Positions 25,552-41,324 of a stretch of 64,000 nt of DNA are shown here, piece after piece (positions within the stretch are counted from its first letter, which is position 1; every line of letters starts with the position of its first letter). The translations under genes and the position numbers were made by a program. A model generated the notes under the pieces. It was not told the DNA's origin. It ran no database searches and was given only the letters and a program-made list of their open reading frames with translations. Origin of the DNA: Escherichia coli (GTDB lineage Bacteria > Pseudomonadota > Gammaproteobacteria > Enterobacterales > Enterobacteriaceae); the NCBI RefSeq assembly GCF_044324875.1, contig NZ_CP172185.1; one strand, given 5' to 3'.

Positions 25552-25582
25552 ACTAAAAAGCCGGAGCAGTCCCCCACTCCGG
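25552..25582 (-). terminator. Rho-independent terminator downstream of deoD
   Basis: Minus strand gccggagtgggggactgctccggc followed by ttttt. Confidence 0.65.
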
Positions 25583-25616
25583 CTTAACACGACGTTCGCC
25601 TTTCAGCAAAACACAA

Positions 25617-26336
25617 TTACTCTTTATCGCCCAGCAGAACGGATTCCAGTGCGATTTTGATCATGTCGTTGAAGGTGGTCTGACGCTCAGCGGCAGTGGT
25701 CTGCTCGTGAGTGCGGATGTGGTCAGATACGGTACAGATGGTCAGGGCTTTCGCGCCAAATTCTGCAGCGACGCCGTAGATACCAGCTGCTTCCATTTCC
25801 ACGCCGAGGATGCCGTATTTTTCCATCACGTCGAACATTTCGCCGTCCGGAGAGTAGAACAGGTCAGCGGAGAACAGGTTACCAACGCGAGCATCAACGC
25901 CCAGTGCTTTAGCCGCGTCTACCGCGTTACGCACCATGTCAAAGTCAGCGATAGCGGCAAAGTCATGGTCTTTAAAACGGATGCGGTTAACTTTGGAATC
26001 GGTGCAGGCACCCATACCGATAACGACGTCGCGCAGTTTTACGTGTGGCAGAACAGCGCCACAGGAGCCTACGCGGATAATTTTCTTCACGCCGAAATCG
26101 GTGATCAGTTCTTTGGTGTAGATGGAGCAGGACGGGATACCCATACCGTGACCCATTACGGAAATTTTGCGGCCTTTGTAAGTACCGGTGAAGCCCAGCA
26201 TACCGCGAACGTTGTTCACTTCACGGGCATCTTCAAGGAAAGTTTCAGCAATATACTTCGCACGCAGCGGGTCGCCTGGCATCAAAACTACGTCAGCGAA
26301 ATCGCCCATTTCTGCATTAATGTGTGGGGTAGCCAT
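25617..26336 (-). CDS. deoD: Purine nucleoside phosphorylase DeoD
   Basis: 239 aa; [55 protein letters not shown]... Confidence 0.97.
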
Positions 26337-26339
26337 TGT

Positions 26340-26412
26340 TTTATCCTTATCAACATGTTTTCACCCTCTCCCTGTGGGAGAGGGCCGGGGTGAGGGCATC
26401 AAGCCGCACCCA
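26340..26412. repeat. Intergenic palindromic element between deoB and deoD
   Basis: ccctctccc-tgt-gggagaggg inverted repeat followed by ccggggtgagggc. Confidence 0.5.
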
Positions 26413-26415
26413 TTA

Positions 26416-27660
<1,245 letters not shown>

Positions 27661-32515: not shown

Positions 32516-33807
<1,292 letters not shown>

Positions 33808-40623: not shown

Positions 40624-40880
<257 letters not shown>

Positions 40881-41001: not shown

Positions 41002-41088
41002 GCGAAGGTGGCGGAATTGGTAGACGCGCTAGCTTCAGGTGTTAGTGTCCTTACGGACGTGGGGGTTCAAGTCCCCCCCCTCGCACCA
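41002..41088 (+). tRNA. leuQ: tRNA-Leu (anticodon CAG), copy 1
   Basis: GCGAAGGTGGCGGAATTGGTAGACGCGCTAGCTTCAGGTGTTAGTGTCCTTACGGACGTGGGGGTTCAAGTCCCCCCCCTCGCACCA; cloverleaf with long variable arm. Confidence 0.93.
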
Positions 41089-41116
41089 AAAACCACGTTG
41101 ATATTGCTCGCACTGG

Positions 41117-41203
41117 GCGAAGGTGGCGGAATTGGTAGACGCGCTAGCTTCAGGTGTTAGTGTTCTTACGGACGTGGGGGTTCAAGTCCCCCCCCTCGCA
41201 CCA
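41117..41203 (+). tRNA. leuP: tRNA-Leu (CAG), copy 2, with C-to-T change in variable arm
   Basis: Identical to copy 1 except GTGTTCTTACGG for GTGTCCTTACGG. Confidence 0.9.
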
Positions 41204-41237
41204 AACGAGGCGATATCAAAAAAAGTAAGACGACTGT

Positions 41238-41324
41238 GCGAAGGTGGCGGAATTGGTAGACGCGCTAGCTTCAGGTGTTAGTGTCCTTACGGACGTGGGG
41301 GTTCAAGTTCCCCCCCTCGCACCA
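41238..41324 (+). tRNA. leuV: tRNA-Leu (CAG), copy 3, with C-to-T change in T-stem
   Basis: Identical to copy 1 except TTCAAGTTCCCC for TTCAAGTCCCCC (G-U wobble in T-stem). Confidence 0.9.

Follow-up and report, generated by a model that had tools for sequence, protein, structure and literature searches.

The palindrome between deoB and deoD in the analysed window (the whole 64-kb stretch of Escherichia coli DNA) is identified by its sequence as one copy of the dispersed BoxC/PIT/TM_ECO type B repeat and not as a locus-specific device. Nothing marks this copy as a dedicated control element of deoD, because BoxC is dispersed many times and, at this site, stands in for an ordinary hairpin in roughly half of all E. 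coli strains. Taken as a whole, identity as BoxC, passive co-transcription with the deo genes and the DNA-level behaviour known from the literature very probably form the best explanation of the element; that BoxC is near-neutral for deoD expression is a conclusion towards which we lean with less assurance. BoxC has been on record since 1992 and was re-described in 2000 and 2015, and both the family and the deoB–deoD site were already known. In an annotation, the interval 26357–26409 is best entered as a repeat_region (BoxC) rather than as a regulator specific to deo.

Anatomy and gene context of the element

On the plus strand, positions 26364–26397 read CCCTCTCCC-TGT-GGGAGAGGG-CCG-GGGTGAGGG-C. 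The sequence-only reading had placed a palindrome in the deoB–deoD spacer, inside the deo operon, and both points are borne out. The palindrome is exact, with 9 + 9 arms that are 100% complementary around a 3-nt loop (26364–26384), and the gene coordinates put the element within the 79-nt spacer (26337–26415, minus strand) between the upstream cistron deoB (phosphopentomutase; 26416–27639, minus strand) and the downstream cistron deoD (purine nucleoside phosphorylase; 25617–26336, minus strand). The deoD Shine–Dalgarno sequence AAGGA (26344–26348, minus strand) lies outside the repeat and is common to both spacer alleles described below.

Three 9-nt blocks, pyrimidine–purine–purine, are separated by short loops, and the first two are Watson–Crick partners, as in the family. 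Read along the plus strand, the conserved family flank GTTTTCA (26357–26363; GTTTTCT or GTTCT elsewhere) is followed by block 1, the pyrimidine arm CCCTCTCCC (26364–26372; compare Table 1 of PMC4666352), the loop TGT (26373–26375) and block 2, the purine arm GGGAGAGGG that pairs with block 1 (26376–26384). The second loop, CCG (26385–26387), defines TM_ECO type B, to which this copy is assigned because of it (PMC4666352). Block 3, GGGTGAGGG (26388–26396), provides the third strand in the purine-motif triplex (PMC4666352), and the unit closes with a second conserved flank, CATCAAGCCGCAC (26397–26409), which aligns with K-12 copies and reads CATCAGCGCGCAC in other copies.

The deo operon lies on the minus strand and the mRNA therefore carries the C-rich complement, reading ...GCCCUCACCCCGG-CCCUCUCCC-ACA-GGGAGAGGG-UGAAAAC... 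across the spacer, with the C-rich tract before the hairpin. A G-rich tract had been said to follow the palindrome, which holds for the plus strand but not for the mRNA: the tract lies on the strand that serves as template for the deo genes, and it is never present in RNA. Beyond deoD, a terminator-like hairpin of 12 pairs followed by TTTAGTATCT was flagged by the scan at 25558–25585 (minus strand), 32 nt past the deoD stop, and is likely the end of the deo operon. The same scan flagged no equivalent terminator-like site downstream of deoD in K-12 (extracted locus L001, 6604–6770), so this stretch, too, may vary from strain to strain.

A tandem group of three 84-nt tRNA genes (41002–41321, plus strand) and the thr operon leader (RF00506; 775–894, minus strand) show that the window covers, in reverse-strand reading, the coordinate origin of the chromosome in a non-K-12 E. 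coli.

Membership of the BoxC/PIT/TM_ECO family

With two mismatches allowed, the palindrome motif occurs once in the window and in none of 100 dinucleotide shuffles. Perfect 9-bp hairpins in general are not rare in the window, where they form nine distinct loci (19 overlapping hits, against a shuffle mean of 1.7 hits), the majority terminator-like. The palindrome by itself is thus only modest evidence; the match to a known repeat family at 34 of 34 positions is decisive.

This 34-nt core is identical throughout to TM_ECO no. 1 (hrpB–mrcB) and no. 4 (xynR–argF) of K-12 MG1655, a comparison made with Table 1 of Holder et al. 2015 (PMC4666352) and confirmed on K-12 DNA. The flanks GTTTTC(T/A) and CATCA(G)CGCGCAC are common to four K-12 copies (hrpB–mrcB, xynR–argF, ilvC–ppiC and alx–sstT). 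Since the similarity reaches into both flanks, the element is a complete unit of ∼53 bp at 26357–26409 in G-rich orientation on the plus strand, its ends accurate to about ±2 nt. This agrees with the 56 bp given for BoxC in the literature and the HMM length of 50 (Petrillo et al. 2008, PMC2267715). The TM_ECO motifs are the elements first named BoxC and later PIT, for potential intrastrand triplex (PMC4666352).

Within the window, blastn finds a single full-length BoxC copy. Across E. coli genomes the median number of places where it finds the element is 6 and the maximum 14, and the tables of Holder et al. 2015 give 19–29 BoxC/TM_ECO copies per strain (PMC4666352). The site itself appears in that work as entry 81 of Supplementary Table S8, in E. 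coli HS (NC_009800, 4623889–4623856), and these coordinates agree with our own BLAST match.

REP and ERIC were also considered as identities for the element and set aside, as it has no sequence similarity to either. Rfam searches at the gathering threshold and at a permissive E-value returned only noise at 26340–26412 (E ≥ 0.13), and RF02564 (naRNA4), the REP/BIME model, matches the window only at 32552–33032 and 40669–40862. These two minus-strand arrays of REP325/naRNA4, with five and two units, respectively, at ∼100-nt spacing, are BIME clusters, a repeat family different from BoxC. Before Holder et al. 2015, the BoxC/PIT elements were treated in Bergler 1992, Bachellier 1999, and Hoyne & Maher 2000 and 2002.

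Two spacer alleles within E. coli

The BoxC allele is present in 2489 of 5426 complete E. coli genomes (∼46%), as counted with a junction-specific query that excludes BoxC copies at other loci. Another 2934 of the 5426 (54%), K-12, O157 and ST131 among them, have the K-12-type allele; the K-12 MG1655 spacer measures 56 nt and is free of BoxC (extracted locus L001, 5828–5883). Between the common TGAT, which includes the deoB stop, and the common AAGGATAAAAC, which includes the deoD Shine–Dalgarno sequence, the window holds 66 nt with BoxC, whereas K-12, O157:H7 and ST131 hold 43 unrelated nt with GGGCGGAG-n6-CTCCGCC and then TTTGTTATGT or TTTAATATGT. In its coding flanks, the O157 allele matches the window at 100%. 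Because the coding flanks are identical while the 43 and 66 nt are unrelated, the alleles differ by a sharp replacement rather than by a simple insertion.

Two other accounts of the difference were rejected. Simple insertion with target-site duplication would have only a 6-nt TGATAA direct repeat, which overlaps the conserved ribosome-binding context, and the BoxC copies compared in K-12 show no duplication. That the native hairpin is a decayed BoxC is at odds with the recurrence of the GGGCGG..CCGCCC hairpin in many genera.

BoxC is not needed for deo operon function, because it is absent from this site in the 54% of genomes with the other allele. The 46:54 split can serve as a natural experiment on the question of whether repeats of this kind change expression within an operon.

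The mRNA hairpin and transcription termination

The main hairpin predicted in the deo mRNA, G-CCCUCUCCC-ACA-GGGAGAGGG-U (26363–26385, minus strand), has 9–10 bp and −16.8 to −18.8 kcal/mol, and sits 30 nt past the deoB stop codon. A second, weaker hairpin, GGGUG..CGG...CCC..CACCC (26388–26411, minus strand), is predicted, in which the BoxC flank pairs with the C-rich complement of block 3. Past the main stem, the tail GAAAACAUGU has no U-tract, so that of the two features of an intrinsic terminator (a G+C-rich stem followed by a U-rich tract) the element has the stem only. Terminator and promoter scans of the 79-nt spacer found no site, and an internal promoter was accordingly rejected along with an attenuator. 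By contrast, the K-12 allele was flagged as terminator-like: GGGCGGAG-n6-CTCCGCCT forms 8 pairs (−14 kcal/mol) with the tail TTGTTATGTC. The K-12-type allele may contain a leaky deoB–deoD attenuator that is missing from BoxC strains. Where PMC4666352 cites Hoyne & Maher 2002, PIT elements are reported to have neither promoter nor terminator activity, in contexts other than deo.

Occlusion of the deoD ribosome-binding site by BoxC was considered and rejected, since the deoD start region is predicted to be similarly accessible in three alleles (0.64, 0.45 and 0.70). Across five genera the main stem is invariant and shows no covariation, as expected of a repeat family and not of an RNA under structural constraint of its own; with neither an Rfam family nor compensatory change, the element does not behave as a structured cis-regulatory RNA. 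The text of the Term-seq supplements contains no deoB or deoD entries, and deoD is a target of the sRNA GlnZ in Salmonella, though not in E. coli.

The segments AGCCAU at the end of deoB (26419–26427) and AUGGCU at the start of deoD (26334–26342), both on the minus strand, pair in short-segment folds of both alleles. A translational-coupling helix formed by them was rejected as an explanation, because the pairing is impossible in genera with a DeoB ending in ..NML and is probably a coincidence of codons.

DNA-level structure of the G-rich strand

Placed antiparallel to block 2, block 3 forms nine triads that are all allowed (G.G, A.A and T.A only, as read from the sequence). A type B oligonucleotide forms an intrastrand triplex in vitro with a Tm of 78 °C, as seen by CD and NMR, while DMS footprinting in vivo gave no evidence of a stable triplex (PMC4666352). 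Sequence variability is elevated around TM_ECO sites (PMC4666352), and PIT elements had no in vivo effect according to the statement of Hoyne & Maher 2002 that is cited there. A G-quadruplex was also considered, as GGGAGAGGGCCGGGGTGAGGG fits the G4 motif, but the published NMR of TM_ECO disfavours it (PMC4666352).

GC skew of the plus strand is negative throughout the window, and judging by this skew the G-rich strand is the leading-strand template. Being the template of both transcription and leading-strand synthesis, it would be in the orientation that least exposes the G-rich strand as single-stranded DNA.

The same spacer in other Enterobacterales

We scanned species-representative genomes with DeoD and extracted the deoB–deoD spacers of 80 Enterobacterales loci. 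In six loci outside E. coli the spacer holds BoxC, always at an identical point and orientation: Enterobacteriaceae bacterium RIT691, Phytobacter, Pseudocitrobacter faecalis, an Enterobacter MAG, Leclercia (with a REP as well) and Enterobacter cloacae. The E. cloacae spacer (L047, 1372–1500) holds ∼1.5 tandem BoxC units; the first copy is truncated, ending in CCCTCTCCCTCGAGAGATAC, and a complete copy comes next. ERIC fills 10 loci (Citrobacter, Kluyvera, Buttiauxella, Rahnella and Dickeya) and REP/BIME ∼14 of the 80, while ∼40, including the E. coli species representative and E. albertii, have a simple G+C-rich hairpin, in many cases with a U-rich tail. The remaining group of 14 loci has short spacers with no hairpin (Pantoea, Erwinia, Pectobacterium and Brenneria). 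A stable hairpin of some kind is thus present in 66 of 80 spacers, a frequency compatible with some mRNA-level role here. In Kluyvera genomosp. 3 YDC799 (L018), the deoB frame seems broken near its 3′ end, by either a frameshift or a sequencing error, and the ORF-based spacer is 283 nt.

The spacers of the window and of Pseudocitrobacter faecalis (L022, 1423–1500) agree at 91%, non-repeat flanks included, and the adjoining coding sequence is 87–91% identical. E. albertii carries the non-BoxC E. coli allele. Each of the two E. coli alleles therefore has its match outside the species, which could reflect an old shared polymorphism, introgression or repeated insertion; the polymorphism may be older than E. 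coli, or the BoxC allele may have been imported. The constant point and orientation of BoxC in other genera, with the 91% spacer identity, could conceivably mean preferential insertion at terminator-like hairpins, or that both forms are long-lived across species. If true, preferential insertion would be a clue to how BoxC spreads. The strong hairpins present here in nearly all Enterobacteriaceae and the 91% spacer conservation could also reflect selection on structured RNA rather than mere tolerance. The deoB–deoD spacer is a small hotspot in which unrelated native, BoxC, REP and ERIC hairpins replace one another. This cross-genus turnover and the 46:54 split within E. coli illustrate known behaviour and not a new kind of thing.

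Proposed explanation and its alternatives

BoxC fills the deoB–deoD spacer instead of the native terminator-like hairpin, here and in ∼46% of E. coli, and we propose that it is transcribed passively within the deoCABD mRNA. The C-rich transcript strand would fold into a G+C-rich hairpin of 9–10 bp that, because no U-tract follows the stem, should not terminate transcription, and that should leave the deoD ribosome-binding site with unchanged predicted accessibility. This hairpin may at most be a generic barrier to 3′-to-5′ exonucleases. When single-stranded, the G-rich strand may fold as a hairpin plus third strand, an intrastrand purine-motif triplex known in vitro only. The family is linked with fast turnover of intergenic sequence, and turnover of exactly this kind is apparent at the deoB–deoD locus.

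If the barrier were more than generic, the hairpin would block exonucleases such as PNPase and RNase II, protect the upstream deoCAB message and set the deoB:deoD ratio. A stable hairpin (−17 to −19 kcal/mol in round figures) 30 nt past the deoB stop and the hairpins in 66 of the 80 spacers point in this direction, and REP hairpins are known stabilizers, those between malE and malF protecting upstream mRNA. Nevertheless, more than half of E. coli dispense with BoxC at the site, the alternative allele already has a hairpin of −14 kcal/mol, so that the difference may be small, and Pantoea, Erwinia and Pectobacterium have no hairpin in the spacer. We consider this role possible though unlikely; an exonuclease barrier can hold alongside BoxC identity, with any shift of the deoB:deoD ratio tentatively expected to be modest. 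Attenuation, whereby the hairpin ends a fraction of transcripts before deoD, had also been suggested, and a perfect G+C-rich stem does lie between the two genes, but the idea does not survive the comparison: the tail GAAAACAUGU has no U-run, the terminator scan is silent, PIT elements lack terminator activity in the report cited by PMC4666352, and the terminator-like structure belongs to the K-12-type allele, so that BoxC would if anything remove attenuation. This makes an attenuator here highly improbable. The converse, a functional regulatory polymorphism in which BoxC replaced a leaky terminator and raised deoD read-through relative to K-12-like strains, is in our view very doubtful.

At the DNA level, the element could act as functional non-B DNA, with an intrastrand triplex or G-quadruplex that, in the course of replication or transcription, pauses polymerases and promotes local rearrangement, possibly adaptively. 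The block sequences conform to the purine-motif triplex rules, triplexes in vitro as well as raised local variability have been reported (PMC4666352), and the locus varies both within E. coli and between genera. However, that variability may be mere repeat insertion and loss, the strand orientation exposes the G-rich strand least, footprinting in vivo and NMR speak against a stable triplex and a G-quadruplex, respectively (PMC4666352), and the PIT report cited in the same paper describes no in vivo effect; we judge such a function quite unlikely. The probability that the palindrome arose by chance, outside any family, is negligible: perfect 9-bp hairpins at nine loci of the window show that such stems do occur, but the 34/34 core identity, the common flanks and the multiple copies per genome exclude it.

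Comparison with known repeats and structures

Compared with other BoxC/PIT/TM_ECO elements, the deoB–deoD copy has the type B core, the family flanks and an intergenic place, and nothing in its sequence differs; it is missing from the K-12 reference and hence is not among the 23 K-12 copies. Intercistronic intrinsic terminators share with BoxC a G+C-rich stem between cistrons, but BoxC lacks their U-tract, and it is the K-12 allele that fits this class. H-DNA and triplex tracts follow the same Hoogsteen logic and, like BoxC, are linked to genome instability; in BoxC one strand folds on itself in three blocks, whereas H-DNA is a rearrangement of a mirror-repeat duplex.

ERIC/IRU is likewise an enterobacterial intergenic repeat and occupies this spacer in the five genera named above for it, but it is ∼127 bp long, of different sequence, and forms a long imperfect palindrome. 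REP/BIME elements resemble BoxC as short G+C-rich palindromic repeats in transcribed intra-operon spacers, and REP fills the deoB–deoD spacer elsewhere. They differ in having no sequence similarity to BoxC, and the site has no Rfam naRNA4 match. For REPs, the transposase RAYT is known, and IHF and gyrase bind them; we know of no transposase or binding protein for BoxC. The mRNA decay barrier formed by REP is the best functional analogy for BoxC.
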